In this document: positions 1 to 17,359 of the stretch, piece by piece
Numbering within the stretch: the stretch's first letter is position 1
Layout: each line of letters opens with the position of its first letter
Source: a virus
Lineage: Duplodnaviria > Heunggongvirae > Uroviricota > Caudoviricetes
Direction: 5' to 3' (one strand)
Length of the DNA: 19,072 nucleotides
IMG/VR virus record: IMGVR_UViG_2663762908_000007
Notes under the pieces: model-generated
What the model was told of the DNA's origin: nothing
Databases searched by the model: none
Seen by the model: only the letters and a program-made list of their open reading frames with translations
Position numbers and translations under genes: made by a program

Positions 1-351
1 TTAATCCCACTCAATCCAGTTGTAGACGATACGAAGTGACGGGCGCACAGCGGCAGTCACATCTTCGGTACTAAAGTCGATTGCATCACTGTAGATTTTG
101 CAGTCCAACATTTCAATTGTTGTAGCAGCTTTTGTCACAGCGTTAACCCCGGAAGATTTGGATTCAGGGGTAGCAGCCATCGTGATATCAACATAGTCCT
201 TCGCCGCAATGCGATCCTTGATGAACTGAAGAATATCGCCTTCGATAGTCTCCACGCACTGGACCTGGATTTCCCCAGAGTTTCGAATTGGTCCGTGCTG
301 GTTGAACTTCACACCATTCGGACCATAGTCCTCCACATCCTCGCGAGTCAT
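1..351 (-). CDS. hypothetical protein in the P1-like late/structural block (116 aa from ATG at 351-349; the ORF track starts it at an in-frame GTG at 366-364)
   Basis: Open frame ending with TAA at 3-1. The ATG at 351-349 overlaps the TGA stop of the upstream small ORF (ATGA). Same strand and tight spacing as neighbouring genes. No family recognised. Confidence 0.5.
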   Translation of the reverse strand: MTREDVEDYGPNGVKFNQHGPIRNSGEIQVQCVETIEGDILQFIKDRIAAKDYVDITMAATPESKSSGVNAVTKAATTIEMLDCKIYSDAIDFSTEDVTAAVRPSLRIVYNWIEWD

Positions 352-509
352 TTCAGGGATTTGCACGTACGAACAAGTACACTGATATCTTCATAGCCTG
401 CAAAAGTGAGCTGGAATTCAGAAGATACCAGTCGTTCGCCTTTGGCCGCGTTGGCAGTATAGCGGCCCTTAATAAATTTACGGTTTCCCTTAGTGTTATT
501 GTGCCCCAT
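348..509 (-). CDS. small ORF, 53 aa (MGHNNTKGNRKF...), stop overlaps the start of the downstream ORF
   Basis: ATG at 509-507 preceded by AAGGA with about 6 nt spacing. Its TGA stop (350-348) overlaps the ATG at 351-349, suggesting translational coupling. Below the 60-aa cutoff of the supplied track, found by hand translation. Confidence 0.3.
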   Translation of the reverse strand: MGHNNTKGNRKFIKGRYTANAAKGERLVSSEFQLTFAGYEDISVLVRTCKSLK

Positions 510-520
510 ATAAAATCCTT

Positions 521-985
521 TTACTGGAACGCCCGAACAATATCGGAGCTGTTATATATCGAAGAACCGGTCAACTGGAGGTTGACGGTGTTTTTCAGGA
601 AATGCCCATTGCTGTCCCTGGGCGCATCGAGATCGAAACTTATGTCCTGGATAGCGACATCAATGATGTTGATCCGGCGACCAATGTTTAGCGTCACACG
701 CTCCGGGATTCGACCACCAATACTGGCATCTTTAAGTTCCGGGCTAATCATCGCTGACAATGCGGCGATAGCTCCTGAAACCTCCGTGAATGGGTCAAAC
801 AAAGCGATGAAAGTTACTGGCAGCGTGAAAGTCGGCGGTGTTCCCCCTTCCCAAACCATTAAGCTGTTCCAACGGGCCACCGACGTTGTTTCAGTACCAA
901 CCTGCGCAAAACCACTGAAAGCACCAGCAACAGACCCCATGGACATACCGGTAAACGGCGCTTCCCAATTCTGGGCCATGTTCAT
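521..985 (-). CDS. hypothetical phage-type protein, 154 aa
   Basis: ORF with ATG at 985-983 and a G-rich SD-like sequence about 6-7 nt upstream. Lies in the same minus-strand block downstream of the sheath-like gene. No motif recognised. Confidence 0.5.
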   Translation of the reverse strand: MNMAQNWEAPFTGMSMGSVAGAFSGFAQVGTETTSVARWNSLMVWEGGTPPTFTLPVTFIALFDPFTEVSGAIAALSAMISPELKDASIGGRIPERVTLNIGRRINIIDVAIQDISFDLDAPRDSNGHFLKNTVNLQLTGSSIYNSSDIVRAFQ

Positions 986-1100
986 TGCTGCCCCCTGGCT
1001 GATATATCCGGTAACCTGATACTGAGAGTTCGTTAAAGTAACTTTCAGAAATGGCGATACACCGTCAGCCTGGCTGTAAACCCCATAAGGTATAGGTGCT

Positions 1101-1130
1101 ATTCAAGTTAAAGGCCGGAGTTCTCCGGCC
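1101..1130 (-). terminator. candidate intrinsic terminator/stem-loop after the acidic-protein gene
   Basis: Perfect 8-bp GC-rich inverted repeat GGCCGGAG / CTCCGGCC (1113-1120 and 1123-1130) immediately after the stop at 1138, followed on the minus strand by TTTAACTT. The U-tract is short, so strength is uncertain. Confidence 0.4.
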
Positions 1131-1137
1131 TCCTCCT

Positions 1138-1953
1138 TTAGCCAAGGCGCTTACGGCGCAGTTTCATTGACTTTTTGCGGGCAAGTTTTGCCGCGCCGGT
1201 CTGAGCTTTTCGACGCGCTTTTTTCAGCGCCGATTTTTGAGCCGCAGTCAGACGTTTTTTACTCAGGCGTTTACGGATGAGTTTGATCTCACCGTTACGA
1301 ACAACCTTCTTAAATGCTTCAGTCAGCATTTCATCAGAAGTGCCAGCAACAACAAACGCCGCTTCCAGTTCATCACGGTCGTCGCTATCTAAACCAGCGA
1401 TAGAGGCACCAACATCAGCAGCTGCGTCGTCGTCTTCATCGTCAGCCAGTGCTTCGATCAGGTCATCATCTACACCGCATGCTGCGAGGAAGTCAGCAAC
1501 ATTTGCCCATGCTTCGTTATAGGCATCGTCCTGTTCTTCTGTAACTTCGGAGTCGTCGTCATCAGAGATACCAGCGATAGCCTGAACGAAACCATCAAGG
1601 GAGTCGAAAGTCAGATCACCGCTATCAGCCCAGGCGAAAACGGCGTCGGCCGCATCACTCAACGCATTTTGCATAGCACTTCGATTTGCAGCTTCCAGAA
1701 TCATCTGGTGCGCCTGTTCGACGGTCCATTCTTTACCGTCTTTCCCTTCCAGGATTTGCTCAGGAGCCGGGGCAGATGGAACGTTATCGTTAGTCTGTGC
1801 CGCCGGTTCCGGATTATTATTAATAACCGGATCTGTTGGCGGTTCGGCGCTTGCTCGGGCAGACTCCATCAGCTGCACAGGATCAGAGCTCAAAGCGAAA
1901 CGAGACAGTCCATTCCCCAAAAATGCCCCGGATTGAAAAAAGTTTTTGCTCAT
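1138..1953 (-). CDS. charge-bipolar protein, 271 aa: strongly acidic D/E-rich core with a very basic K/R-rich C-terminal tail of about 50 aa
   Basis: ORF with ATG at 1953-1951 and SD AAGGGA about 7 nt upstream, 9 bp after the stop of the sheath-like gene (operon-like). Composition read directly from the translation (DDDDSEVTEEQDD, DDEDDDAAAD, then KLIRKRLSKKRLTAAQKSALKKARRKAQTGAAKLARKKSMKLRRKRLG). Confidence 0.6.
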   Translation of the reverse strand: MSKNFFQSGAFLGNGLSRFALSSDPVQLMESARASAEPPTDPVINNNPEPAAQTNDNVPSAPAPEQILEGKDGKEWTVEQAHQMILEAANRSAMQNALSDAADAVFAWADSGDLTFDSLDGFVQAIAGISDDDDSEVTEEQDDAYNEAWANVADFLAACGVDDDLIEALADDEDDDAAADVGASIAGLDSDDRDELEAAFVVAGTSDEMLTEAFKKVVRNGEIKLIRKRLSKKRLTAAQKSALKKARRKAQTGAAKLARKKSMKLRRKRLG

Positions 1954-1962
1954 TGTATTCCC

Positions 1963-3552
1963 TTACTTAATAAGCAGCGGTACGCCCTGGATACGACGGG
2001 CTACGCCAGTCGGGCAGCAGGCCCAGACTACTTCCCATTTATCGAATTCCGCCTGCGTAACTTTCAGCACATACGGTTCTGTACCGTCAGCATCAGGATC
2101 ACGAGGAGCCACCAGAGCGCCGGAGGCGACAAAGCGATCTAAAAGTTTGGTCATCCCTTTAGTCAGGCCAGCCGCAGTAATACCGTCCGGGCTATGCTTC
2201 ATCTGTCGGGCTAACTGGACAAAGAAACGGCTGATTGCATTCATCAGGGATGGGACGTGCTGGAAGTGCAGATAGTTATCCTGCGTGCAGCAAGTTAAAG
2301 CATCGTCGATGATCATCTGGCCAGAGGTGCCAACAGATACTTTATTGAGACGGCCCTTGACCATTGCTTCTTCGTCCGGGGTATCTTCCGGATACAGCGG
2401 TTGAATTGACGCACGAGCAATGACGGCACGTTCTTCACCAGCCGGTGAGTAATGCCAACCGCCGACATCAGAGTTTTTCTTGACGCCACGAGCTTTCACC
2501 GCATACGCCACGCCAGACAGACCAAAGACCACACGGGATTGGGTCCATTTGTCTTTGCAGGAGAACGGGTAGTGATAGACAGAACAGCTTACATAATCGG
2601 TACCAAGTAAACCGGTATCCTCAACAGCTGGTAGTGCTTCTGCGTACGTTAATGTCGGTTTGACATCAAAGAAGCCATCAATCAGGCGATCTGCACAGAT
2701 TTTACCTAATGCGGTGATAGCCGCATTGTCATAGCAGCCCAGGCCAAGAACAGCGGTGTACATGTACGGCGCATTGTTCAGAACTTTCACCGCACGCAGG
2801 TACGTAGCGGTTGAGATTTTCGACTGATCGCCGTTGGTACCGCCAGTGAACGCCAACGATTTTTTGTTTGTTACTTTCGCTGTCGAAATCAGCTCTTCAT
2901 TAACAACCGCGCGCAAATATTTAGAACGGGCTTCCAGAGCCGTAGGCAGATAACACAAGCGGCCCATGTCATCTTTCGCTTCTTCCGCCAAAGACACAGT
3001 GTGTGTCTCCAGGGTCGTTACCACGCCGAGCGAAGTCGTCTGGGGCAGTTTTAAGAGGAAGCGTTCATTACCCGCGCTGTCCGCTGTTGCCGTTTCGATG
3101 GTTAACTCACGGGTAGGTGAAATACACGGATCACCATCATCAACGTAGATAGCAAAGGCTTCGCCACTATCAAGTTCAATTTCAGAACCGTATGGCAACG
3201 CACTGTAAGCCGGTTCGCCTGATTCATCGAACATAATAATCGGGAACTTCGCATCATCCGGAACAGCGCGAACAACGTAACCAGACGTTTGCTGAATAGC
3301 TTCGTATACATGGCGAATTGGTTCGAACTGTGAGCCGGAAGACGGCTTCAGCGGTTCGCCGAGAACATCTTCGTAATTGGACTCAGTAACCGCAAGAACA
3401 GTAAACGGCTTGCCACGCGCAAATACGCCAATACCAGCCCACAAGCTGCTATTTAATGCAACACCGGTAGATAACGTCGCATCGGCATTGATCGGGCTAA
3501 CCGCGACGCCGGATGCATTACCTAATGACTGTTGAATTGAATATTGAGACAT
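1963..3552 (-). CDS. phage structural protein, 529 aa, possibly contractile tail sheath (P1 gp22-like)
   Basis: Long ORF with SD AGGGA upstream of the ATG at 3552. The size (about 58 kDa) and a W-x-x-S-P-A-G segment (GGWHYSPAGEE) resemble the conserved W-K-A-P-A-N/G region of myovirus sheath proteins. In P1 the head and tail genes 21-22-23 lie next to par. Assignment is from memory, not a search. Confidence 0.55.
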   Translation of the reverse strand: MSQYSIQQSLGNASGVAVSPINADATLSTGVALNSSLWAGIGVFARGKPFTVLAVTESNYEDVLGEPLKPSSGSQFEPIRHVYEAIQQTSGYVVRAVPDDAKFPIIMFDESGEPAYSALPYGSEIELDSGEAFAIYVDDGDPCISPTRELTIETATADSAGNERFLLKLPQTTSLGVVTTLETHTVSLAEEAKDDMGRLCYLPTALEARSKYLRAVVNEELISTAKVTNKKSLAFTGGTNGDQSKISTATYLRAVKVLNNAPYMYTAVLGLGCYDNAAITALGKICADRLIDGFFDVKPTLTYAEALPAVEDTGLLGTDYVSCSVYHYPFSCKDKWTQSRVVFGLSGVAYAVKARGVKKNSDVGGWHYSPAGEERAVIARASIQPLYPEDTPDEEAMVKGRLNKVSVGTSGQMIIDDALTCCTQDNYLHFQHVPSLMNAISRFFVQLARQMKHSPDGITAAGLTKGMTKLLDRFVASGALVAPRDPDADGTEPYVLKVTQAEFDKWEVVWACCPTGVARRIQGVPLLIK

Positions 3553-3567
3553 AACTTTCCCTGTTAT

Positions 3568-3586
3568 GCGCCCCGCACGGGGGCGC
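3568..3586 (-). other. intergenic GC-rich stem-loop between the 205-aa ORF and the sheath-like gene
   Basis: GCGCCCC-gcacg-GGGGCGC, a 7-bp perfect stem, 26 bp after the stop at 3613 and just upstream of the RBS of the 529-aa gene. No clear U-tract, so it may be a processing or attenuation element rather than a terminator. Confidence 0.35.
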
Positions 3587-3612
3587 TATGTTAAACGGAG
3601 AACTTCCCCTGA

Positions 3613-4230
3613 TTACTCAGAGTCACCGGCATCAATCGTGTCGCCGCTTATGAAGTTAAGCCCGCCTTTTTTGGCCATTGTCAGCGTTACACGAGTGAAG
3701 TAATCAGCGCCGTTGCGTGGGTGCATATCGTTGATAGCCGAACCCCACAGCGTGCTACGGTTGACCAGCGCCGGAGTGGTCGGATGCTGGAACGGGATGG
3801 CCGGGACAGCATCACCAGTCACGAAGCCTGCTTTACCCGGATTTTCATCACGGACGTAGCACAGCACATCCATCGAGCTGAACTGAATGTTCTCAGTCGT
3901 TAAGTTCTTACAAATACCAGCAGGTACTTCGTACACTTTCACGTTACCGAACAGGGTACCGATGTAGTGAACATACGGAGTCTGGATATAGTCTTCGGCT
4001 GGCTGGAAGAAATCCTTCGGCAACTGTTTGAAGAAAGATGCTGCATCAGCACCAGCAAACATCCCCATCGCACCAGAAGATTTAACGCGCTCAATAATGT
4101 CGCGATATACAGTCTGGAATTTGCCACGAATGATGGTTGCCCATACATCAAAGGACTGGTTAACCGGCAGAGCGATGTCAAAGGTGTCGGTCGCAAGAGT
4201 GCGCCAGATCATGATGCGAAGACGCAGCAT
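3613..4230 (-). CDS. 205-aa ORF, probably the C-terminal part of a major head protein (P1 gp23-like); in the same frame as the upstream 360-aa ORF, separated only by a TAA
   Basis: ATG at 4230-4228 has AGGA only 1 nt upstream, a poor RBS. The frame is continuous with ORF 4237-5319 except for the TAA at 4239-4237 (...EYLSH * QD MLRLR...). Confidence 0.5.
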   Translation of the reverse strand: MLRLRIMIWRTLATDTFDIALPVNQSFDVWATIIRGKFQTVYRDIIERVKSSGAMGMFAGADAASFFKQLPKDFFQPAEDYIQTPYVHYIGTLFGNVKVYEVPAGICKNLTTENIQFSSMDVLCYVRDENPGKAGFVTGDAVPAIPFQHPTTPALVNRSTLWGSAINDMHPRNGADYFTRVTLTMAKKGGLNFISGDTIDAGDSE

Positions 4231-4236
4231 ATCCTG

Positions 4237-5319
4237 TTAATGAGACAGGTATTCCTTCAGGGTGCGGAACTGTAGGGAACCCAGGTCTAGACCAAATTCA
4301 CGCTGTGCTTCATACGCCGCCTGTACCGTGTGCTCAGCCGCGATAACGAACTGACTTGGGAACAGGGTGTATTTCTTCATTTCGTGGTTGATCAGCGGGA
4401 TCAGCTCAGGAGCGGCTTCAATATTGATTTCCGTCTCAATTGCGATCTCAGTGCCTTTATCCGGCGCTTTGGAGAACGACAGGGCAATCTGACCAATGTT
4501 GTAGTTCAGAGAGCAGGTAACAGTGATTTGCTCACCAGCAGCATTAGTAAACGAGTGAAGTAGGCTGCCGGAACCGTTATCAACAACAGACTTAATACGG
4601 TTAACGTAGATGTTAGTACGACCTTTTCGGATTGGCACATTCTGGCCTTCGAAGTCTTCCATCTTGAAGGTTGCGGTTTTGCTGGTGCCATCGGAGCTTG
4701 CCACCAGCACATAGCGGCGACGTAACTGGCTGTACACACCGACGGATTGCATGTCCAGAACATCACCAGCAGCATAAGAACCAAAAGAGGAACCTGCCAC
4801 GTTAAAGACTTCATAGATGTCGGACTGGTCACGCGTAACCGGAATGAAGGTACACGCATCAGCGGTAGCTGCCCCCAACTGAACAGGCAGGATCATCGCG
4901 AGGAATAAAGGCAGACGCATAACACCGTCAGAAACGCTCATCATCTCTGCTGCGACGGATTCCAGCATCGCTTTATTAGTGGCATCCATGCTATTGCGGG
5001 TGGACTCAATCAGGCAGTTTTCCAGCGTCTGGTGGCAGGAGGTCAGAATTTCCGAACGCGGCATAGATTTATGTGCTGCGGCGTAGTCAGCCAGTGCACT
5101 TGCCCACGCTGTAGCGATTTGAGCGGTGGCATTATCAGAGATACCCGCAAAAATCGGGTCTTTACGTGCAGCTTCAAGGATAGATGCGGCACGCGCGGCA
5201 TCATCTTTAATGAATTGGTTATCAGTACCGAACTGCGCAGTGCTTGCCCAGCCAAGCACAGCTTTAGAGCGTTTTGCGATATCTGCAATACGATTCTGGT
5301 ATTCGCGTAAGTTACTCAA
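4237..5319 (-). CDS. 360-aa ORF, probably the N-terminal part of a major head protein (P1 gp23-like) with an Ala-rich helical N-terminal region
   Basis: TTG start at 5319-5317 with SD AAGGAAGAG about 5 nt upstream. It is the first gene downstream of parS, where P1 carries gene 23. Combined with ORF 3613-4230 it gives about 568 codons, matching a roughly 62 kDa head precursor. Confidence 0.55.
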   Translation of the reverse strand: MSNLREYQNRIADIAKRSKAVLGWASTAQFGTDNQFIKDDAARAASILEAARKDPIFAGISDNATAQIATAWASALADYAAAHKSMPRSEILTSCHQTLENCLIESTRNSMDATNKAMLESVAAEMMSVSDGVMRLPLFLAMILPVQLGAATADACTFIPVTRDQSDIYEVFNVAGSSFGSYAAGDVLDMQSVGVYSQLRRRYVLVASSDGTSKTATFKMEDFEGQNVPIRKGRTNIYVNRIKSVVDNGSGSLLHSFTNAAGEQITVTCSLNYNIGQIALSFSKAPDKGTEIAIETEINIEAAPELIPLINHEMKKYTLFPSQFVIAAEHTVQAAYEAQREFGLDLGSLQFRTLKEYLSH

Positions 5320-5344
5320 TTTACTCTTCCTTAAACATAAGGCA

Positions 5345-5530
5345 CTTGTGTGAATCCCTTTTCGGAAGAGATTTTATTGAAAGTCACTTGTTGACTTTCT
5401 CGCGAAAAGTAATTTTTTAAATTTTTTGTGCGGGGAAGTGGACGGTGAATGCAGGCGTTAAATCGTGGGAATTTCAGTCTGAAATTCTCCTAAAAAACAC
5501 ATGCAAATCATAATGTTAGCAATGAAATTG
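5345..5530. promoter_or_regulatory. parS: candidate parS centromere (ParB binding site) downstream of parB
   Basis: Located where P1 parS lies, directly after parB. Contains the heptamer palindrome GAATTTCAG-t-CTGAAATTC (5469-5487), further TGAAAT/GTGAAT-like heptamers (5350, 5446, 5523), an AT-rich tract (5411-5428) that could be the IHF site, and a second palindrome GAAAGTCA-cttgt-TGACTTTC (5380-5400). Confidence 0.45.
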
Positions 5531-5583
5531 GTGCAGGACATTTTAGGAAGGGGAGGGGCTAACACCACCTCCCACCAGCGGGA

Positions 5584-6549
5584 TTATTCCCCAGCAGACA
5601 TTTTCCCAATGATTTTTTTTATTGCTTCGTCAATTTCAGTTTGCACTTCAGACGGGAGTCTAGAGAACTCGTAGGCGACAACCCGTTTTTTCGGATCGGA
5701 CTTCTTTCGAGCATATTGGCGACGGTCAGAGAAGTCTCGCAGCTTCTCAACCACCACAGATTTAACCGGCGCGGGCTTCAGGCTTTTGCTTTCCGCTTGG
5801 AAGATAGCCAGTATCTTCGCTTTATCCTCTTGCGCGCCCTCAGTCTCTGCAATTCGTTCGCGCACCGTATCAACCAGCTCTTCAATAGGCACGCTTTTAG
5901 CGTTGGCATCCTCGGAGATCTGGAGCAGTAACTGGTAATCTGGCAGGGCGAGATCGCTGGCAACAGGGAAGACAGCAATCATCTCATCCGGCACCGCTGC
6001 CGCCTGGAACGCGCGCGTAACTTTAGCCTTTGAAATGTTCTCAGCGCGGGCGATCTCTTCTTTGGTCATGCTCTTACCATACATAACCTCGAAGCGTTTA
6101 CCCAGTTCGCGCAGGGTGTGTTCGCGGGCTGTCTGGATATCAATGGCCAGCTGGCGTGCATCCGCCAGGCTGATCTCATCTTTCGTCACCAGAATCTCAA
6201 ATTTCGTTTCATTGAAGATACACGCAGCGCGGCGACGTGATCCGTCCAATACCTCAATGCGCTCCCCAACCATACGACCAATAGCCGGGAAGAACTGTTG
6301 CAATTTAATGGTGCGGGAAATATCGCTTACCGACTCAGGGGTGAGCAGAGACTGATCGCGGCCGTTAACTGCCGGGTCAACGAACGTGCGCGACTCAATC
6401 TCACCACTCAGCACAACGGTAAGCAAAAATTTAGCCTGGCGGCCAGATTTTAGGGTAAAGGTTTTGGTGCCTTCACTGCCTTCAAGCATGCGAGCAAACT
6501 CGGAGCTATTCTTGCCCAGCACTCGTCCACGGGAAACTATTTTTTTCAT
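5584..6549 (-). CDS. parB: partition protein ParB (type Ia, P1 family), 321 aa
   Basis: The translation carries the ParB signature EVLDGSRRR and an HTH region, and aligns by eye with P1 ParB but is clearly divergent. It overlaps parA by 4 bp (ATGA). Confidence 0.9.
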   Translation of the reverse strand: MKKIVSRGRVLGKNSSEFARMLEGSEGTKTFTLKSGRQAKFLLTVVLSGEIESRTFVDPAVNGRDQSLLTPESVSDISRTIKLQQFFPAIGRMVGERIEVLDGSRRRAACIFNETKFEILVTKDEISLADARQLAIDIQTAREHTLRELGKRFEVMYGKSMTKEEIARAENISKAKVTRAFQAAAVPDEMIAVFPVASDLALPDYQLLLQISEDANAKSVPIEELVDTVRERIAETEGAQEDKAKILAIFQAESKSLKPAPVKSVVVEKLRDFSDRRQYARKKSDPKKRVVAYEFSRLPSEVQTEIDEAIKKIIGKMSAGE

Positions 6550-7757
6550 GCCGCCTCACCCCTAACAAACTCAATTCGATCAAACACAGCCTTAGTGAAA
6601 CGCTCGGCCTCGGTTCGTGCCTTCTTCAGCGCCTCTGCACTGCCTGGATACGATTGCGGGTTGGCACTGATTACGGTGTCGAAAGACTCGCCGCATCGCT
6701 CAAATCCATCCAGACGAGGCAGAGAAGAGTCCAGAATGTTGCTGGCGTAAACCTCACGCGCAAGGCTGTGTGATGTCTCGTGATCGCGCTTGCCGGTCAT
6801 CTTCGACATAAAACCAATGCTGGCGCTTAAACGCGGTTCTACGCCTTCCTCCTCCAGTTGCTCCAGCATTTCTGGCAGACGGGTGAGATATTTCAGTGTT
6901 GAGTGGAAGTCAACCTGGGCTGGTGGGGTAGGGGTAAGCAGCAAATCGCTGGCCGCCAGACCGTTGAGCAGGAACGGATCCAGGTGTGGGCCGGTATCAA
7001 TAAAGATAAAGTCATAATCATCCGCAACACGATCAATGATATTGCGTCGAAGGATTTCGTACTGATTTTGTCCGGGAAGATGCTCTTCAACCAGCTCTTT
7101 CCATTGGCTGGCAACAAAGCCATCGTCGATAGAGGCTGGAATCACGTCTACGCCAGGAACGATGGTCGGACGAATCACCTCTTTGCGTAGCGTCTCCGCG
7201 TCCAGGTCGTTCAGCATCGCCTGCGCGGCGGTTTCCAGGATGGAACCAATACTGTGAGTATGGTCGAGGAACATTGTGCTGGATGCCTGAGGGTCAAGGT
7301 CAATTACCAGAATGCGCAGATCGTGACGCAGTAAATCCTGATGCACACGCAGAGCGTGCGCCAACGTGACTGTGGAAACCGTTTTGGATACGCCACCCTT
7401 CAGGTTTACGACAAAAATAACGTAAGGCGATTTGTGAATGTCGCGATATTTTGGGATCTTACGGTGGGCATAGATATCAATGACGTTCTGGATGGTCAGC
7501 GCGTACTGTTCAACGTTACCGACCTGTTTCTTGTTGAACTGGTACCCATTATCTTCCATCTCTTTGATGGCCTGCTCCACAATGCGGCGGCTCAGCTTCG
7601 GCAACTTTGCCACAGCGTTACGAGTGAACGTCTGATAATACTCGGTCTGATTGAACTCTTTGCGCTGCTCTTCAATATCCTGACTCATGGCCTTAAGTAA
7701 TGCGCTTGCACGAAGAGCTATGGTGCCGACACCGCCGTAATCGCGTTTCATCATCAT
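6546..7757 (-). CDS. parA: partition ATPase ParA (type Ia, with N-terminal regulatory extension), 403 aa
   Basis: Deviant Walker A NLKGGVSKTVST, and the motifs ILVIDLDPQ and RLDGFERCGESFDTVISANP, typical of the P1 ParA family. Sits upstream of parB. Confidence 0.92.
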   Translation of the reverse strand: MMMKRDYGGVGTIALRASALLKAMSQDIEEQRKEFNQTEYYQTFTRNAVAKLPKLSRRIVEQAIKEMEDNGYQFNKKQVGNVEQYALTIQNVIDIYAHRKIPKYRDIHKSPYVIFVVNLKGGVSKTVSTVTLAHALRVHQDLLRHDLRILVIDLDPQASSTMFLDHTHSIGSILETAAQAMLNDLDAETLRKEVIRPTIVPGVDVIPASIDDGFVASQWKELVEEHLPGQNQYEILRRNIIDRVADDYDFIFIDTGPHLDPFLLNGLAASDLLLTPTPPAQVDFHSTLKYLTRLPEMLEQLEEEGVEPRLSASIGFMSKMTGKRDHETSHSLAREVYASNILDSSLPRLDGFERCGESFDTVISANPQSYPGSAEALKKARTEAERFTKAVFDRIEFVRGEAA

Positions 7758-7866
7758 CTCCTTATCATTTCGTATGAGTGAATTGTACGTTTGATTCTGC
7801 TACGTGCAACTTTCTTTGATTCGTGCGTCAATTATTGCACGTAAAGAAATGGCGATGAGGCTATTA
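7758..7866 (-). promoter_or_regulatory. parAB promoter/operator region (inferred)
   Basis: Intergenic region upstream of parA with the inverted repeat ACGTGCAA (7802-7809) / TTGCACGT (7835-7842). Type Ia ParA proteins autoregulate at an operator overlapping their promoter. Confidence 0.4.
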
Positions 7867-8119
7867 GATGTGTGCTGGAGGGATGATGCAGGACCAGAAT
7901 GTGCGATAGAGGGAAGTCGCATTGAATTATGTGCTGTGGAGGGATCGCTGGTATCAAATATGTGTGCTGGAGGGAAAGGCAGAGAATTACATGTGCACTG
8001 GAGGGAAAAACGGATGGACAGATGTGTGCTGGAGGGAAAGTCTGGGCAAACTGCGGGGCGTCCCCCTCCAGCGCACATCAAAAACAGGAAATTGGACAAG
8101 CCTTCCCTCCAGCACACAC
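7867..8119. repeat. incA: incA-like iteron array downstream of repA (about 8 copies of the P1-type 19-bp iteron, 6 in one orientation and 2 inverted)
   Basis: Copies of GATGTGTGCTGGAGGGAAA or close variants at 7867, 7898 (degenerate), 7928, 7960, 7991 and 8021, and inverted copies (CCCTCCAGC[A/G]CACAT) at 8061 and 8101. The last abuts the repA stop codon. Confidence 0.85.
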
Positions 8120-8980
8120 TTATTCTGGGAGTTTCAGCTTTGGATTGCGAGAATGGACGATTACAAAACTTTCCCGGCCTTTCTTCTCAATTGAACAGTC
8201 GAGATAGCCGATTGTTTTAAGCTGTTCTATCGCTTTCTTAATGATACGGTTTTGCTCGCCAACAGCTGACTGCAAAGCCAGGCGCTCACGGATTCGGGCG
8301 AAAGATAGCGGCAACGGATTCTGCGGAAGGCTTTCGATGAAAGTGTAAATGGCTTGTGCAGCTTCTTTCTTCGGAAGGGCACGCAAGGCGTGGTGTTGCA
8401 ACAGAACGCGATAATCAAGCTGGAACAGCTCCCACAGCTTCGAATCAGCCTCCAGTTCTATCAGATCAAGGTCAGCATCAAAACGCCCGACCTTCAGCAG
8501 ACCAGTCTGATAGCCGCCTTTAGCATCTTTTCCGCGCTTAAAAGCGATACCCTTGTTACGCAAGCGTCCAAGTGATTCATGAATGGTTAAACGCAGTTTC
8601 GCATCCAGACGTTTTGAGGGGAAACCACAGGCTTTAGCGAATTCCTGAAACGATAACTGGATGGTGTTTGAGGACAAGCCGTATTTGCTGAACGCGTAGA
8701 TGACACCGATCCACGTTTTGAAATCAGTATCCATATCGAGTCGAGGACCGGTGATTTTAATATCATCGTAACCCTCGGCTTTAGCTATCTCCAGCTGGGA
8801 AAACGCTTTGGTGGCATCAATCTCTTTACTTTCTCCTTTGCTCTTTGATGGCTTCGGAACGAATACCCCCAAGCGCATCAACGCTACAGGCTGCACAGTG
8901 TTGTTTGAATTAACTGTTAGTTCTTTTGCCTTACTTTCAATGTCTGCGTAAAGAATATCGGATATAAATGATTGATTCAT
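8120..8980 (-). CDS. repA: iteron-binding replication initiator RepA (P1 R-replicon type), 286 aa
   Basis: An ORF of the P1 RepA length, flanked upstream by five direct iterons and downstream by the iteron array, which is the diagnostic incC-repA-incA arrangement. Confidence 0.92.
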   Translation of the reverse strand: MNQSFISDILYADIESKAKELTVNSNNTVQPVALMRLGVFVPKPSKSKGESKEIDATKAFSQLEIAKAEGYDDIKITGPRLDMDTDFKTWIGVIYAFSKYGLSSNTIQLSFQEFAKACGFPSKRLDAKLRLTIHESLGRLRNKGIAFKRGKDAKGGYQTGLLKVGRFDADLDLIELEADSKLWELFQLDYRVLLQHHALRALPKKEAAQAIYTFIESLPQNPLPLSFARIRERLALQSAVGEQNRIIKKAIEQLKTIGYLDCSIEKKGRESFVIVHSRNPKLKLPE

Positions 8981-9036
8981 ATTACTTTTTCCGAATTATG
9001 TGGATAGTTTTTATAAGTGATGATAACTACCCAGGC

Positions 9037-9140
9037 TTTCCCGTCAGCACACATCCTATATCCCGCCAGCACACATTAGCAACCCGTCAGCACACATTTT
9101 TATCCCTCCAGCACACATCGGTTTCCCTCCAGCACACATC
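9037..9140. repeat. incC: incC-like origin iterons (5 direct copies, about 21-bp spacing) containing the repA promoter region
   Basis: CC[C/G][T/C]CAGCACACAT copies at 9037, 9061, 9081, 9101 and 9122, all in the same orientation, immediately upstream of the repA start. Confidence 0.85.
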
Positions 9141-9178
9141 GCGATACACTTCTAAGCCAGACGTGGCGCGGCCTGCAA

Positions 9179-9257
9179 CGATCAGGGATCTATATGGATC
9201 TAATTGGGATCTGTATGGACCTAATTATTGGATCTACTCAGTGGATAATGTGGATAA
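9179..9257. other. oriR core elements: cluster of five GATC (Dam) sites plus two tandem DnaA boxes
   Basis: GATC at 9180, 9187, 9197, 9208 and 9231 within GGATCT-type heptamer repeats. TGTGGATAA (9249-9257) is a perfect DnaA box and AGTGGATAA (9240-9248) has one mismatch. A further TGTGGATAg lies at 8999-9007 between incC and repA. This matches the known P1 oriR architecture. Confidence 0.7.
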
Positions 9258-9260
9258 GTG

Positions 9261-9284
9261 AAAAACCGGCCAACAAAGCCGGTT
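9261..9284 (-). terminator. intrinsic terminator after the truncated gene, insulating oriR
   Basis: On the minus strand AACCGGC-tttgttg-GCCGGTT followed by TTT, a 7-bp stem with a U-run, 15 bp after the stop at 9301-9299. Confidence 0.5.
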
Positions 9285-9298
9285 GGAAGGAAGCTGTA

Positions 9299-9658
9299 TT
9301 ATTCTATGCTTTCGATGAGAAGACCATGTTCATAACATTTAAGCTCATCGCCTTCGTACAGGAATTGGTATCCAATACCACCATCTTCATGGACATTAGG
9401 GAATAACTCATAACTCACTGAAGAGCAAATCACACCAATACAGCGATCAACGCCTTCTCGTTCTTCAGTGCTGAAAAAATCCTCTTCAGTAAGAACATGA
9501 GTACATTGCTCATCAGCATAGGTCGGAAATACATGCTCAATGCAATCCGGGTGTTTTAAACCAAGCTGATCGGCAAGCTCGAAAGCACGACGGTATTGTT
9601 CAGATCCTGGCTTGCCAACAGTGATTTGCTCAATTTTGTAGATTGAAGTCGCTTTGTT
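9299..9658 (-). pseudogene. 5'-truncated ORF (119 codons, no start) interrupted by the IS911-like element
   Basis: Frame open from the IS boundary at 9658 to the TAA at 9301-9299 (...VGKPGSEQYRRAFELADQLGLKHPDCIEHVFPTYADEQC...YEHGLLIESIE). No initiation codon is present because the frame runs into the IS left end at 9659. Absent from the supplied track. Confidence 0.5.
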
Positions 9659-9976
9659 TGAAGTGGCACACTGAATTTGGCCACCTGAACAGAGGTGATA
9701 TGCTCACCTCAGAACAACACAGGTGCTCCAATGAAAAAAAGAAATTTCAGCGCAGAGTTTAAACGCGAATCCGCTCAACTGGTTGTTGACCAGAAATATA
9801 CGGTGGCAGATGCCGCCAAAGCTATGGATGTTGGCCTTTCCACAGTGACAAGATGGGTCAAACAACTGCGTGATGAGCGTCAGGGCAAAACACCAAAAGC
9901 CTCTCCGATAACACCAGAACAAATCGAAATACGTGAGCTGAGGAAAAAGCTACAACGCATTGAAATGGAGAATGAA
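9659..9976 (+). mobile_element. IS911-like (IS3 family) left end: terminal inverted repeat plus the 5' part of orfA
   Basis: Starts with TGAAGTGGCACACTGAATTTGG, the IS3-family terminal TG...CA structure and the IS911 end as I recall it. orfA ([21 protein letters not shown]...) follows at 9731. Identity to IS911 ends at 9976. Confidence 0.8.
9731..9976 (+). CDS. IS3-family transposase OrfA (IS911 InsN-like), 3' end replaced by foreign sequence
   Basis: The translation [82 protein letters not shown] is an HTH plus leucine-zipper OrfA. The track ORF begins 12 codons early at 9695, and its tail ([13 protein letters not shown]) is not OrfA. Confidence 0.75.
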
Positions 9977-10070
9977 TCTACAGCGGCTTTTTTTTTAATA
10001 TGTCCCGTTCGTCGGTAACCCGTTTCAGCTCTTTCTGGAGACGGCGGATCTCGGCCTGAGCATCTGACTG
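9977..10070 (-). mobile_element. fragment of a second, different IS3-family orfA in inverted orientation (contig end)
   Basis: The reverse complement translates to [30 protein letters not shown], the leucine-zipper region of another IS3-family OrfA, joined head-to-head to the IS911 orfA at a shared ATATTAAAAAAAG-like motif. Confidence 0.5.
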
Positions 10071-10099
10071 NNNNNNNNNNTTTCGGCCCCGGTTCTCTT

Positions 10100-12397: not shown

Positions 12398-13828
12398 ATG
12401 GCTGGGAATGTTCAGGAAAAACAGTTGCGATGGTACAACATTGCGCTGATGTCTTTTATCACTGTCTGGGGTTTTGGCAACGTTGTTAATAACTATGCCA
12501 ACCAGGGGCTGGTGGTTGTTTTTTCATGGGTGTTTATCTTTGCACTCTATTTCACACCTTATGCGCTAATTGTTGGTCAGTTAGGCTCGACCTTCAAAGA
12601 TGGGAAGGGCGGGGTCAGTACCTGGATTAAACACACGATGGGACCCGGACTGGCTTATCTCGCCGCGTGGACCTACTGGGTGGTGCATATTCCCTATCTG
12701 GCACAAAAACCCCAGGCAATTCTGATTGCGCTCGGTTGGGCGATGAAAGGCGACGGTTCGCTAATCAAAGAATATTCAGTCGTAGCGTTACAGGGGTTAA
12801 CGCTGGTGCTGTTTATCTTCTTTATGTGGGTTGCTTCACGCGGTATGAAATCGCTGAAAATCGTCGGTTCTGTGGCAGGGATTGCTATGTTTGTTATGTC
12901 GCTCCTGTATGTGGCGATGGCGGTAACCGCGCCTGCAATTACTGAAGTGCATATTGCGACCACAAACATTACCTGGGAAACGTTCATTCCTCATATCGAC
13001 TTTACCTACATTACCACTATTTCAATGCTGGTTTTCGCGGTTGGCGGAGCAGAGAAGATTTCTCCTTACGTTAATCAAACGCGCAACCCAGGAAAAGAAT
13101 TTCCAAAAGGGATGTTATGCCTGGCGGTGATGGTTGCGGTTTGTGCCATTCTGGGCTCGCTGGCGATGGGGATGATGTTTGATTCGCGTAATATCCCGGA
13201 TGACTTAATGACCAACGGTCAGTATTACGCCTTTCAGAAGCTGGGCGAGTATTACAACATGGGTAATACTTTAATGGTGATTTACGCCATTGCGAATACC
13301 CTGGGACAAGTAGCGGCGCTGGTATTCTCGATTGATGCCCCGCTTAAAGTGCTATTAGGTGATGCTGACAGCAAATATATTCCAGCCAGTTTATGTCGTA
13401 CCAACGCTTCTGGTACGCCCGTTAATGGCTATTTTCTGACCCTGGTACTGGTGGCGATTCTGATTATGCTGCCGACTCTCGGCATTGGTGATATGAACAA
13501 TCTCTATAAATGGCTGTTGAACCTTAATTCGGTAGTGATGCCGCTGCGTTATTTATGGGTATTTGTTGCATTTATTGCAGTCGTTCGCTTGGCGCAGAAA
13601 TATAAACCAGAATATGTCTTTATTCGTAATAAGCCTCTGGCAATGACCGTCGGGATTTGGTGTTTTGCCTTTACCGCCTTTGCCTGTTTGACGGGGATCT
13701 TCCCGAAAATGGAAGCCTTCACTGCAGAGTGGACCTTCCAGTTGGCGCTGAATGTTGCAACGCCGTTTGTGCTGGTAGGATTAGGACTGATATTCCCGCT
13801 GCTGGCGCGTAAAGCGAATAGTAAATAA
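12398..13828 (+). CDS. ycaM: APC-family amino-acid transporter YcaM, 476 aa
   Basis: The track ORF starts at 12206, but the conserved protein starts at the ATG at 12398 (MAGNVQEKQLRWYNIALMSF...). A polytopic membrane protein. Confidence 0.88.
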   Translation: MAGNVQEKQLRWYNIALMSFITVWGFGNVVNNYANQGLVVVFSWVFIFALYFTPYALIVGQLGSTFKDGKGGVSTWIKHTMGPGLAYLAAWTYWVVHIPYLAQKPQAILIALGWAMKGDGSLIKEYSVVALQGLTLVLFIFFMWVASRGMKSLKIVGSVAGIAMFVMSLLYVAMAVTAPAITEVHIATTNITWETFIPHIDFTYITTISMLVFAVGGAEKISPYVNQTRNPGKEFPKGMLCLAVMVAVCAILGSLAMGMMFDSRNIPDDLMTNGQYYAFQKLGEYYNMGNTLMVIYAIANTLGQVAALVFSIDAPLKVLLGDADSKYIPASLCRTNASGTPVNGYFLTLVLVAILIMLPTLGIGDMNNLYKWLLNLNSVVMPLRYLWVFVAFIAVVRLAQKYKPEYVFIRNKPLAMTVGIWCFAFTAFACLTGIFPKMEAFTAEWTFQLALNVATPFVLVGLGLIFPLLARKANSK

Positions 13829-14069
13829 TTATTGTGGTCGGTGACGCTGACTCTGGCAGATCTGACCCGTTTTTACATAATCGAGAAATGCGCGCAAGCC
13901 GCAGGACATATACTGGCGGTTTGGATAATAGATCTGGAAGCCTGGACGCTCTGTGCTCCAGTCTTCCAGTACACATTCTAAACGACCAGTATCAAGGTAC
14001 TCCTTGATCTGTTCATAGAGCAGATACCCGATACCAGCACCCATCAAAACGGCCTCCAGTTCAGCATCA
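13829..14069 (-). pseudogene. ycaN: 3' remnant (about 80 codons) of the LysR-type regulator gene ycaN, truncated at an IS1 terminus
   Basis: The translation (...LEAVLMGAGIGYLLYEQIKEYLDTGRLECVLEDWSTERPGFQIYYPNRQY...) is a LysR substrate-binding-domain C-terminus. The frame runs directly into the IS1 end at 14070. The gene neighbours ycaM in E. coli. Confidence 0.7.
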
Positions 14070-14134
14070 GGTGATGCTGCCAACTTACTGATTTAGTGTA
14101 TGATGGTGTTTTTGAGGTGCTCCAGTGGCTTCTG
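14070..14134 (+). mobile_element. IS1 terminal inverted-repeat end (contig ends inside IS1)
   Basis: GGTGATGCTGCCAACTTACTGATTTAGTGTATGATGGTGTTTTTGAGGTGCTCCAGTGGCTTCTG is the canonical IS1 terminus. Confidence 0.85.
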
Positions 14135-14144
14135 NNNNNNNNNN

Positions 14145-14277
14145 AGTCGCGGATGAATATGACCAGCCGACGTCCGATATCACGAAGGATAAATGCAGCA
14201 AATGCCTGAGCGGCTGTAAGTTTCGCAATAACGTCGGCAACTTTGGCGGCTTCCTTTCCATTAACAAACTTTCGCAG
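14145..14277 (+). CDS. L: lambdoid tail-tip protein L-like C-terminal fragment (internal to a 133-bp contig)
   Basis: The only open frame gives VADEYDQPTSDITKDKCSKCLSGCKFRNNVGNFGGFLSINKLSQ, a cysteine cluster consistent with the Fe-S-binding C-terminus of lambda gpL. Assignment is from memory only. Confidence 0.45.
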
Positions 14278-14320
14278 NNNNNNNNNNTCCTGAATGATTA
14301 AAGCAGCATAATCCCGCAAG

Positions 14321-14396
14321 GGGTCGTTAGCTCAGTTGGTAGAGCAGTTGACTTTTAATCAATTGGTCGCAGGTTCGAATCCTGCACGACCCACCA
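14321..14396 (+). tRNA. tRNA-Lys (anticodon UUU), complete with CCA
   Basis: GGGTCGTTAGCTCAGTTGGTAGAGCAGTTGACTTTTAATCAATTGGTCGCAGGTTCGAATCCTGCACGACCCACCA is identical to the E. coli tRNA-Lys(UUU) as I recall it. The anticodon loop is CTTTTAA. Confidence 0.95.
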
Positions 14397-14542
14397 GTTT
14401 TAACATCAAACTCAGATGTTAAGCGTGAAGGATAACGTTACGCCAGCAACGGCCCGTAGGGCGAGCGAAGCGAGTCATCCTGCACGAGCCACCAATTTTA
14501 AAGATTGGTTCCGAGTAGAAATCTTTCAGGTAACACCCATAT

Positions 14543-14607
14543 GGGTCGTTAGCTCAGTTGGTAGAGCAGTTGACTTTTAATCAATTGGTCGCAGGTTCGA
14601 ATCCTGC
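14543..14607 (+). tRNA. second tRNA-Lys (UUU) copy, 3' end cut by the N run
   Basis: Identical to the first copy over its first 65 nt and ends at the gap at 14608. The tandem arrangement matches the E. coli lysT-type tRNA operon. Confidence 0.85.
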
Positions 14608-14617
14608 NNNNNNNNNN

Positions 14618-14733
14618 CATCATAGATGCCGCCGTTCATCGCCATCTGCACCTGACCCTGACTATTAATATCCGCCAGCAGAGCATGTAACGTTCCCCAC
14701 GCTTCGCCATTGGCTTTTTGCCAGTACATTTTC
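14618..14733 (-). CDS. unassigned coding fragment, probably prophage-derived
   Basis: Only one of six frames is open across the whole 116-bp contig (KMYWQKANGEAWGTLHALLADINSQGQVQMAMNGGIYD). No confident family assignment. Confidence 0.3.
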
Positions 14734-14743
14734 NNNNNNNNNN

Positions 14744-14971
14744 TGACTGCTCCTGCTCACCGGTCCGGAACACCACCGTGACGCCGGATATATTGGTATT
14801 CCCCTCACTGTCCAGCACCGGCGTACTGTTCAGCAGCACGCTTTTTAATCCGTCCACCGGACCTTCAACCGGCCCTTCGCTGATGGCATCGATCACACTC
14901 AGCAGCTGCGTGGACTTCAGGTTGTCCTTCGCTTCGCGCGGGGTATGCCCCTTACTGCTGCCTTTACCCAT
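14744..14971 (-). CDS. J: lambdoid central tail fibre / host-specificity protein J, N-terminal 76 codons
   Basis: MGKGSSKGHTPREAKDNLKSTQLLSVIDAISEGPVEGPVDGLKSVLLNSTPVLDSEGNTNISGVTVVFRTGEQEQ matches the lambda J N-terminus nearly residue for residue. SD GAGGA lies upstream. Confidence 0.8.
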
Positions 14972-15249
14972 TCCTCACGCTNNNNNNNNNNTATTAACAG
15001 AGACCGTAGCCCGACGGGGAACTCCTTCTGCGAGAGTGTGCGGGAATAATCAAAAACGATGCACACCGGGTTTTTACCGCGTTTATGGTTCGCGGGTTTG
15101 TCCCTCATGCTCGCCAGTCCTGTGCGGGGGTGGAAGAAACAGGACACTTACACAGATTCTTGTGGGCACGATGCTATGCCTTTCTGGATTATCCCGATGC
15201 CATTCATGCAAGGCGTTGTATCAGACGTTCGTCAGAGCTGTCAGGCTGA

Positions 15250-15468
15250 CGGGTCCTCCCGGTGGGGTGGCCTGCCACGGGGCGGGAGCGTCGCGGGTTT
15301 TCGCTATTTATGAAAATTTTCCGGTTTAAGGCGTTTCCGTTCTTCTTCGCCGTAACTTACTGTTTTTATTTAAAACACCCCCTGAAAAGAAAGGAAACGA
15401 CAGGTGCTGAAAACAGGCCTTTTGGCCTCTGTCGTTTCCTTTCTCTGTTTTTGTCCGTGGAATGAACA
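15250..15468 (+). other. cos: lambdoid cos region (cosQ, cosN, cosB) upstream of nu1
   Basis: ACGGGGCGGGAGCGTCGCGGGTTTTCGCTATTTATGAAAATTTTCCGGTTTAAGGCGTTTCCGTTCTTCTTCG... is collinear with the lambda left end, but the 12-nt cohesive-end segment reads GGGCGGGAGCGT here versus GGGCGGCGACCT in lambda as I recall it. Confidence 0.7.
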
Positions 15469-15677
15469 ATGGAAGTCAACAAAAAGCAGCTGGCTGACAT
15501 TTTCGGTGCGAGTATCCGTACCATTCAGAACTGGCAGGAGCAGGGAATGCCCGTTCTGCGAGGCGGTGGCAAGGGTAATGAGGTGCTTTATGACTCTGCC
15601 GCCGCCATAAAATGGTATGCCGAAAGGGATGCTGAAATTGAGAACGAAAAGCTGCGCCGGGAAGTTGAAGAACTGCG
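15469..15677 (+). CDS. nu1: terminase small subunit Nu1, N-terminal fragment
   Basis: MEVNKKQLADIFGASIRTIQNWQEQGMPVLRGGGKGNEVLYDSAAAIKWYAERDAEIENEKLRREVEEL matches lambda Nu1 (winged HTH). Cut by the gap at 15678. Confidence 0.85.
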
Positions 15678-16134: not shown

Positions 16135-16874
16135 ATGGCACATGGCCTGTCTATAGCTAATTCCGAAGTCAGGACGTTAACCGCCGATACCGATAGCGGG
16201 AAAGATGCAGCGGCAGCACTTGCCGCGCGACTGCTGCAAGCCTCGCGCGAATCTGCCGGAAATACTTATCTTACACATAAAGGTTTCCCGGAACATATTT
16301 GCCATGAGCTGACTTCAGCTCATAAAACCGGTGGGGTGATGTTCCGCCCCGGTGATTTGATCGTCCCGCTCTATAACGCTGACGGGGAGCTGGTGAATAT
16401 TCAGCTTATCAGTGGCAATGGTAGCAAGTGTTTTCTTAAAGGAGGTCAGGTTAAGGAGGCCTATCATCTTATAGAAGGGGGCGGGAGTTCAGTAAGAAGA
16501 ATGTGGATTACGGAAGGCTACGCCACGGCGCTTACCATTCATCATCTGACTGGAGAAGCCGTCATGGTGGCATTTTCGGCGGTCAACTTTCTTTCTCTGG
16601 CCAGCGTTGCCCATAACAAGTATCCGGGGTATCAGCTAATTATTGCAGCGGACCGAGATCTGAATAGTTCAGGCCAGAACAGGGCTGAAGCTGCTGCAAA
16701 AGCGTGTCAGTGTGACATTGTGCTGCCACCGGTTTTTGGTGACTGGAATGATGCGCTTGCCCATTACGGAGAGGAATCCACCCGGAAGGCAATTCTTGAG
16801 GCTTTGAGGCCACATAACGCCAGTCCTTTCGACACGATGAGTGAAGCAGAATTCACAGCGATGAGTGTCAGCGA
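16135..16874 (+). CDS. TOPRIM-domain primase-like protein fragment (satellite-phage or integrative-element type), both ends cut by gaps
   Basis: An open frame across the entire contig with a TOPRIM-like core (MWITEGYATALTIHHLTGEAVMVAFSAVNF ... LIIAADRDLNSSGQNRAEAAAK). Lambda itself has no primase, so this likely comes from a different element. Confidence 0.5.
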
Positions 16875-16884
16875 NNNNNNNNNN

Positions 16885-17359
16885 CGAGAAATAGGTGTTC
16901 TGTTTGCCGTTATCTGTACTTGCTGCCGTGGGCGTCCTGGCTTTCGGTGCCAGCATCTGCGCCACTCCGCCCAGGATCATACTGGCCCCTGCCGCATACA
17001 TGCCCGATACAGCCGCGGCACCCAGCCAGCCCACAGGGTTCCACCATGCCACCGCAATCAGCGCCGCCCCCAGCACCACCTGAAACACACCGCCACTTTT
17101 AGCTCCCGCCAGACGCGGCACGATGTGGATCACGGCACCATTTGCCAGCGGCTCATTAAGACGGGCAGACAATTCGGTTTCACCTGCATCACGCCCGGCA
17201 ATGCGTACCTGGTACCAGCCGTCGCTCAGTTTCTGACGAAACGCCGGGTTCTGCATGGCCAGCGCCCGGATGGCTTCGGACCCCGTTTTCACTCGAAGGT
17301 CGATGCGGCGGCCAAATCGTTGTAAATCCCCGTAAAGGCAGATGCGTGCCATGCCCGGT
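16885..17359 (-). CDS. I: lambdoid tail assembly protein I fragment
   Basis: (PG)MARICLYGDLQRFGRRIDLRVKTGSEAIRALAMQNPAFRQKLSDGWYQVRIAGRDAG... matches lambda gpI. Both ends lie at gaps. Confidence 0.8.

Follow-up and report, generated by a model that had tools for sequence, protein, structure and literature searches.

The open frame without a start codon that lies beside the replication origin in the 19,072-base window (the whole stretch of DNA that was analysed) is a truncated copy of the P1 gene upfA, and the insertion-sequence scar that cuts it very probably marks the boundary of a P1 replicon, formed by a three-step history that left a silent upfA remnant and an unaffected oriR. The window is a chain of 14 short-read contigs joined by 10-N spacers. 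Runs of exactly ten N occur in it 13 times, at 10071–10080 and at 12 later places (14135 ... 18186), and it is therefore a contig chain and not one molecule. Contig 1 (1–10070) is P1/P7-like and contains parB (5584–6549), parA (6546–7757), the incA iterons, repA (8120–8980) and oriR. The following contig (10081–14134) is chromosomal E. coli DNA encoding YcaC (ycaC; equivalog, E=1.4e-121), an MFS transporter and an amino-acid transporter, and physical linkage of the genes right of 10070 to the upfA scar cannot be read from the window. The contigs after 14145 are 116–877 bp in length, and ORFs spanning the spacers (e.g. 16135–17325) are artefacts. The features around the scar are as follows.

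8120–8980, minus strand: repA of the P1/P7-type (IncY) replicon, a 286-residue ORF; at the corresponding position, P7, P1 and the closed plasmids all have a gene annotated as repA.
9037–9278, minus strand: oriR (incC iterons, Dam sites, DnaA boxes), with coordinates carried over from the P7 rep_origin annotation.
9240–9257, plus strand: a tandem pair of DnaA boxes, AGTGGATAA TGTGGATAA, on the outer margin of oriR, read directly, with a DnaA protein_bind feature at the same place in P7 and P1.
9264–9284, minus strand: terminator-like hairpin between upfA and oriR, with a stem of 8 pairs (5 of them G-C), a loop of 5 and a T-rich tail.
9299–9658, minus strand: remnant of upfA (P7 upf62.1), codons 12–130 plus stop, identical in 119 of 119 residues to P7 Upf62.1 residues 12–130.
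9659–9976, plus strand: IS911 nt 1–318, with the left inverted repeat at 9659–9694 and the first 82 orfA codons from 9731 (NCBIfam IS3 transposase N-terminus, E=2.6e-11).
9973–9982, plus strand: TGAATCTACA, assigned to the right end of IS30 as its terminal 10 nt; the opening 4 nt (TGAA) are also IS911 nt 315–318 (microhomology).
9983–10070, minus strand: inverted 5' part of a second IS3-family element that is not IS911 (NCBIfam IS3 transposase N-terminus, E=1.1e-17).
10071–10080, no strand: 10-N spacer, a contig boundary and not a physical link.

Translation of the minus strand at 9299–9658 gives 119 codons (NKATSIYK...LLIESIE) and a stop, in agreement with the preliminary description, which had reported a frame of this length without a start. 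Extended upstream, the frame enters the IS and reaches a stop without encountering any ATG, GTG or TTG, and the first canonical in-frame start is a GTG at 9433, whose product would be only 44 residues long. A megablast search of 9000–10070 against phage records matched P7 at 98.9% and P1 at 96.4% identity across 9000–9658, and the feature annotated at the matched region is upf62.1 in P7 and upfA in P1, in both cases a native gene of 130 codons with an ATG start. The intact gene and its uninterrupted target site, which the preliminary description had proposed to look for in P1-like genomes, are thus present in these two phages, and the refuting case that it named, a frame that has no homologue and is non-coding, fails on the complete identity to P7 Upf62.1 over all 119 residues. 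At the breakpoint, P1/P7 read ...CGCTTTGTT/GATAGTTTGC... and the window reads ...CGCTTTGTT/TGAAGTGGCACACTG... (the slash marks the junction); the divergence after CGCTTTGTT therefore places the breakpoint at 9658/9659, 33 bp past the upfA ATG.

The full-length P7 protein matches the UpfA family profile phrog_1453 (PHROG 1453) with E=1.3e-60. The window has no intact 130-codon CDS with an ATG, as codons 1–11 are missing, and the ribosome-binding site and the upstream operon are lost together with them. The native location between oriR and mlp, with transcription towards oriR, is preserved on the oriR side, and the IS scar now occupies the side facing mlp. In plasmids identical to the window, PGAP/RefSeq annotates a 125-residue hypothetical protein, WP_071596384.1 (window 9299–9676, minus strand), with an ATT start within the IS911 repeat; the call is probably an artefact of annotating a pseudogene. 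The upfA remnant itself is most likely a silent pseudogene, because promoter, ribosome-binding site and canonical start are all missing from it, and weak expression from the ATT start may occur.

The canonical IS911 left end (TGAAGTGG...) begins exactly at 9659, and P1/P7 homology is continuous through 9658, so the reported run of the 5' end of the gene into an IS911-like left repeat at 9659 was correct. The terminal repeat begins with 5'-TG, and TGAAGTGGCACACTGAATTTGGCCACCTGAACAGAGG from 9659 is the left end of the IS911 copy of Shigella phage Sf6 (IS3 family, AF547987.1), which shares the left inverted repeat (TGAAGTGGCACACTGAATTTGGCCACC...) and differs at one residue in the first 82 OrfA codons. 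Positions 9662–9976 are 96.5% identical over 315 nt to Sf6 IS911 nt 4–318, the alignment starting at nt 4 because the annotated IS911 of the Sf6 record omits the first 3 nt. Compared with the IS911 copy of NZ_JBRBQE010000003.1, all 318 nt (9659–9976) are 99.7% identical. By the usual criterion, isoforms of an insertion sequence share at least 95% nucleotide identity, and the piece in the window exceeds this level in both comparisons. Homology to the element ends with nt 318 at position 9976, just before the A6G frameshift motif (ATATTAAAAAAG), and the contig runs 94 bp past this point into non-IS911 sequence. In contrast to the full element of ~1250 nt, the window has neither a full orfA, the A6G frameshift window and orfB (DDE transposase), nor a right inverted repeat and 3-bp target duplication, and its IS911 is therefore unable to transpose. 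No right end and no other IS911 segment occur elsewhere in the window, and in identical plasmids PGAP labels the piece 'transposase, incomplete, missing C-terminus'. Thus, of the reported disruption by an IS911-like element, the part that stands is that an authentic left end of IS911 interrupts a real, conserved gene behind its codon 11; the element itself is reduced to nt 1–318 and is fused to pieces of IS30 and of another IS3-family element.

On the plasmid of strain CH425, NZ_JBRBQE010000003.1, the right end of IS30 (...GATTGAATCTACA) occurs alongside an annotated IS30. The window has no complete IS30 terminal repeat, transposase gene or 2-bp target duplication; only the final 10 nt remain, and the proposed name has a short basis, six IS30-specific nucleotides, although these coincide exactly with a junction that other genomes share. 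Read in reverse complement, the sequence from 9983 onwards corresponds to the first ~314 nt of the second IS3-family element, whose OrfA starts with MSGKRYPEEFK.... This element ends at the contig end (10070) here, and its terminal repeat (TGAATCGCCACGG) is found ~218 bp further on in the closed plasmids. It has no significant nucleotide similarity to IS911; 1,585 of the 5,426 E. coli genomes contain the element, and plasmid NZ_AP027681.1 has a full copy at about 32733–34032. An identification with the K-12 'IS911A' was rejected, as the DH1 match adjoins yagB and has no significant nucleotide similarity to IS911. The junction between the second element and IS30, ...AAAAAAAGC(C/T)G(C/T)/TGTAGATTCA..., is common to the window, where it takes the form ...AAAAAAAGCCGC/TGTAGATTCA..., E. 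coli K-12 DH1 (beside yagB) and plasmid NZ_AP027681.1. Compared with the IS3-family elements hit by IS30 in DH1 and in the CH425 plasmid, the window keeps only the last 10 nt of IS30. The overall layout of the scar is therefore upfA(codons 12–130) :: IS911(1–318) :: IS30(last 10 nt) :: inverted IS3-family element(~314–1).

Two further observations concern these elements. The A-run of the frameshift motif in the second IS3-family element is 9 nt long in the window (nine T at 9988–9996), compared to 8 in the closed relative CP088401.1 and 7 in both DH1 and NZ_AP027681.1; the differences stem either from sequencing error or from drift of the homopolymer in an element that is dead. Additionally, IS30 is found at a homologous spot in the two IS3-family elements, at nt 334/335 of IS911 and at ~nt 314 of the second element (window 9973–9987), in both cases a few bases past the A-rich frameshift motif, which may reflect a target preference of IS30.

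The same scar occurs in closed plasmids. Three complete IncY plasmids (CP088401.1, CP099107.1 and NZ_CP148376.1) contain the 1071 bp of 9000–10070 at 99.9% identity, and a 301-bp probe for the upfA/IS911 junction is fully covered in nine of the 5,426 complete E. coli genomes, in each case on a plasmid of 35–88 kb. South Korea, Tanzania and Pakistan are among the origins of the isolates that carry the junction, as are seawater and a calf. NZ_OY757951.1 was rejected as a tenth junction record, since its 90% match is in two pieces spread over ~750 bp. In total, at least ten closed plasmids replicate with the upfA::IS911 junction, and the complete arrangement upfA::IS911(1–318)::IS30(10 nt)::inverted IS3-family element is found in NZ_JBRBQE010000003.1, NZ_CP148376.1, CP088401.1, CP099107.1 and NZ_JBSTRJ010000003.1. 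Plasmids identical to the window at the scar are typed IncY, and the window itself carries a P1-type (IncY) replicon, as indicated by the 98.9% identity of 9000–9658 to the annotated P7 oriR/incC region together with the repA, parA and parB ORFs.

The closest relative is the 78-kb CH425 plasmid, in which positions 17003–27069 match the whole of contig 1 (10,070 bp) at 99.76% identity and lie between an IS421 copy and the upfA IS scar. Window position 1 (CH425 plasmid 17003) is ~160 bp past the IS421 transposase gene, and the other end of the contig is the IS scar; contig 1 is therefore probably unique DNA lying between two repeats. A frame directly left of parB (3613–5319) contains, relative to the CH425 plasmid, a nonsense codon (GAA to TAA at 4237–4239, minus strand) that splits the window ORF into pieces of 360 and 205 residues; the codon is absent from the CH425 plasmid, which is otherwise 99.8% identical over this frame. 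Going by P1 gene order, this ORF is at the position of gene 23 (major head protein), and the split is consistent with a decaying, non-inducible prophage remnant. In several closed IncY relatives, the P1 genes left of parB were removed by IS26, and identity to CP088401.1 begins only at window position 4609.

On the right of the scar, the closed relatives contain a small formate-dehydrogenase-like ORF (fdh fragment), a Dyp-type peroxidase, an encapsulin shell protein and rpoH; RefSeq annotates the scar itself as the 125-residue protein followed by two head-to-head incomplete transposase pseudogenes. The cargo beside the P1 replicon thus includes a Dyp peroxidase–encapsulin pair and an extra rpoH (CH425 plasmid 27272–41316; CP088401.1), to which the CH425 plasmid adds the heat-resistance genes hsp20, clpK, trx-GI, kefB-GI and psiE-GI, and CP088401.1 adds lactate-utilisation genes. 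Neither the 5' end of upfA nor mlp, ppfA or upfB occurs in a 47-kb stretch of the CH425 plasmid or in the window, and in the closed relatives cargo DNA has taken the place of the upfA 5' end, mlp and ppfA. A full IS911 interrupted by IS30 at nt 334/335 (13046–15517) lies on the CH425 plasmid as well, ~1.5 kb left of the P1 remnant in inverted orientation, and the IS911 right ends on this plasmid adjoin only other IS fragments, not upfA.

From the scar we infer the following order of events, including a deletion at TGAA. The scar is very probably the right-hand boundary of a ~10-kb P1/P7-like prophage-plasmid remnant, which retains tail and head genes, parB, parA, incA, repA and oriR and provides a mosaic cargo plasmid with its IncY replicon. 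In the first step, IS911 transposed into upfA 33 bp past the ATG, with its left end facing the gene body, as the junction at the exact IS end shows. In a second, separate step, IS30 had earlier inserted into the second IS3-family element just past the frameshift site, as in DH1; the junction sequence shared with other genomes demonstrates this hit. In the third step, illegitimate recombination or deletion at the 4-nt TGAA microhomology would have fused IS911, at its nt 318, with the terminal 10 nt of IS30. This event would have cost the plasmid the remainder of IS911, almost the whole of IS30 and those P1 genes that lie upstream of upfA (mlp, ppfA and beyond), and cargo (the fdh fragment, Dyp peroxidase, encapsulin, rpoH and more) would have come to lie next to the replicon. 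A single simple inversion and an intramolecular IS30 transposition were both rejected as sources of the IS911 / IS30-end / inverted IS3-family arrangement, since the orientations do not fit, and the microhomology deletion was settled on as the minimal explanation. As such, the scar is ordinary plasmid decay that is already deposited in closed E. coli plasmids.

The hairpin at 9284–9264 begins 15 nt past the upfA stop, corresponds to the terminator reported after the stop, and is native to P1/P7, as it lies within the 98.9%-identical stretch. The DnaA boxes at 9240–9257 likewise place the insertion within ~400 bp of the origin, as first noted. The proposal that the insertion affects read-through into oriR did not hold up: upfA and IS911 orfA are divergent, with orfA directed away from upfA; a promoter scan found no sigma-70-like site on the minus strand in 9659–10070, the sole match being the known repA promoter region, so that no promoter-like site faces oriR; the native terminator before oriR is intact; and the closed plasmids, at least ten of them, replicate with the junction. 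Judged from the sequence, the IS911 insertion would take away transcription towards oriR rather than add to it. Replication with the scar is expected to be normal because oriR, the DnaA boxes and the terminator are untouched, an expectation in line with the wide distribution of closed plasmids that carry this scar.

A selected regulatory consequence, either altered transcription into oriR or a functional UpfA with an altered N-terminus (the 125-residue PGAP protein), is accordingly very improbable in our view. In its favour are the distance of 400 bp between the junction and the DnaA boxes, the transcription of upfA towards oriR, the fusion ORF annotated by PGAP and the conservation of the scar in a plasmid lineage. 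However, IS911 orfA faces away from upfA, the minus strand of 9659–10070 has no promoter-like site and the native terminator is kept between upfA and oriR. Moreover, the sole start available to the fusion ORF is a non-canonical ATT without an evident ribosome-binding site, conservation within one lineage is explained by descent, and upfA is dispensable and has been broken in many different ways.

Slightly less credible still is a simple recent insertion of a complete IS911, with the contig breaking in the repeat and the right end, the 3-bp duplication and the 5' part of upfA residing on other contigs. The left junction is indeed a perfect IS-end junction, short-read contigs often end in IS copies, and the window is a contig chain; but contig 1 continues 94 bp beyond nt 318 into non-IS911 sequence, the closed plasmids show the same 1071 bp followed by cargo genes, and the window has no other IS911 piece, upfA 5' end, mlp or ppfA. 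The right end and target-site duplication, which the preliminary description suggested searching for, are absent from the window, and a synthetic reciprocal junction (IS911 right end + GTT + upfA 5' end) was covered to at least 80% in none of 20,395 E. coli records and none of 72,556 plasmids. Neither an ancestor with a complete IS911 in upfA nor a target duplication was found in the same 20,395 records and 72,556 plasmids, and a complete IS911 is effectively already refuted. An equally remote alternative, a short-read assembly (graph) artefact with no IS at this position of upfA in the real molecule, could draw on both breakpoints lying in multi-copy IS sequence and on the fragmented assembly with its 13 N spacers, but is set aside by the evidence of the contig and its closed relatives: complete plasmids from unrelated isolates and countries have the same junctions base for base, and one of them matches the entire 10,070-bp contig at 99.76%.

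UpfA has no domain match in Pfam and no match among PDB sequences, and PHROG 1453 is annotated as 'unknown function'. Structure prediction indicates a small protein with a confidently predicted fold that has no match among solved structures. An exhaustive HMMER search with UpfA found only ~15 divergent homologues of 125–147 residues, along with two long proteins, one with ankyrin repeats and one without a Pfam domain above threshold, which are uninformative on UpfA function. Across an alignment of 17 homologues, K8 and R78 are the sole invariant residues, with F110, Y112 and D115 nearly so. Zinc binding by the Cys and His residues of UpfA was rejected, as these are not conserved across the 17 homologues. 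A homologue with 51% identity, encoded in a prophage of GCA_034741995.1, is immediately preceded by genes for two holins and a glycoside hydrolase 19 endolysin together with small overlapping spanin-like ORFs, and is followed by terminase genes. Similarly, upfA of P1 follows the Rz-like mlp. By this analogy, UpfA might be associated with lysis genes, but the association is weak and gives no functional assignment.

The value of the scar lies in correct annotation, and it carries little biological weight. The frame should be annotated as a upfA pseudogene, the 'IS911' as a dead 318-bp fragment in a scar of three ISs, and the 10-N spacer as providing no link to chromosomal genes. The scar is also a convenient lineage marker for an IncY mosaic plasmid family that uses a P1 replicon remnant to carry cargo, which in relatives includes the Dyp peroxidase/encapsulin pair, rpoH and heat-resistance genes.

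Loss of upfA is recurrent. The gene was non-essential for P1 in a genome-wide CRISPRi screen (PMC10695390), and the repA–upfA interval is one of the variable regions of P1-like phage-plasmids, with a 4.2-kb blaCTX-M-55 segment interrupting upfA in JL22 (PMC9603915). In pJIE250-3, upfA is deleted (substitution), and in pSvP1 it marks a rearrangement boundary (PMC6906374). The protein database contains many UpfA variants that are cut at differing points and fused to unrelated sequence at either end, which indicates many independent disruptions. It is conceivable, but we consider it unlikely, that this repeated breakage is not neutral, with UpfA counter-selected once the phage lives as a plasmid or the stretch beside oriR being a preferred target of transposition or recombination, the IS911 junction then being one instance.

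No description of an IS911 breakpoint after upfA codon 11 was found in the literature on upfA disruptions. The events in JL22, pJIE250-3 and pSvP1 differ from that in the window in their breakpoints and in the elements concerned (IS1380/IS5 with blaCTX-M-55, ISEc84). In these phage-plasmids, as here, upfA beside oriR tolerates insertion, deletion and the gain of cargo (PMC9603915, PMC6906374), and the scar is one more case of this known pattern.
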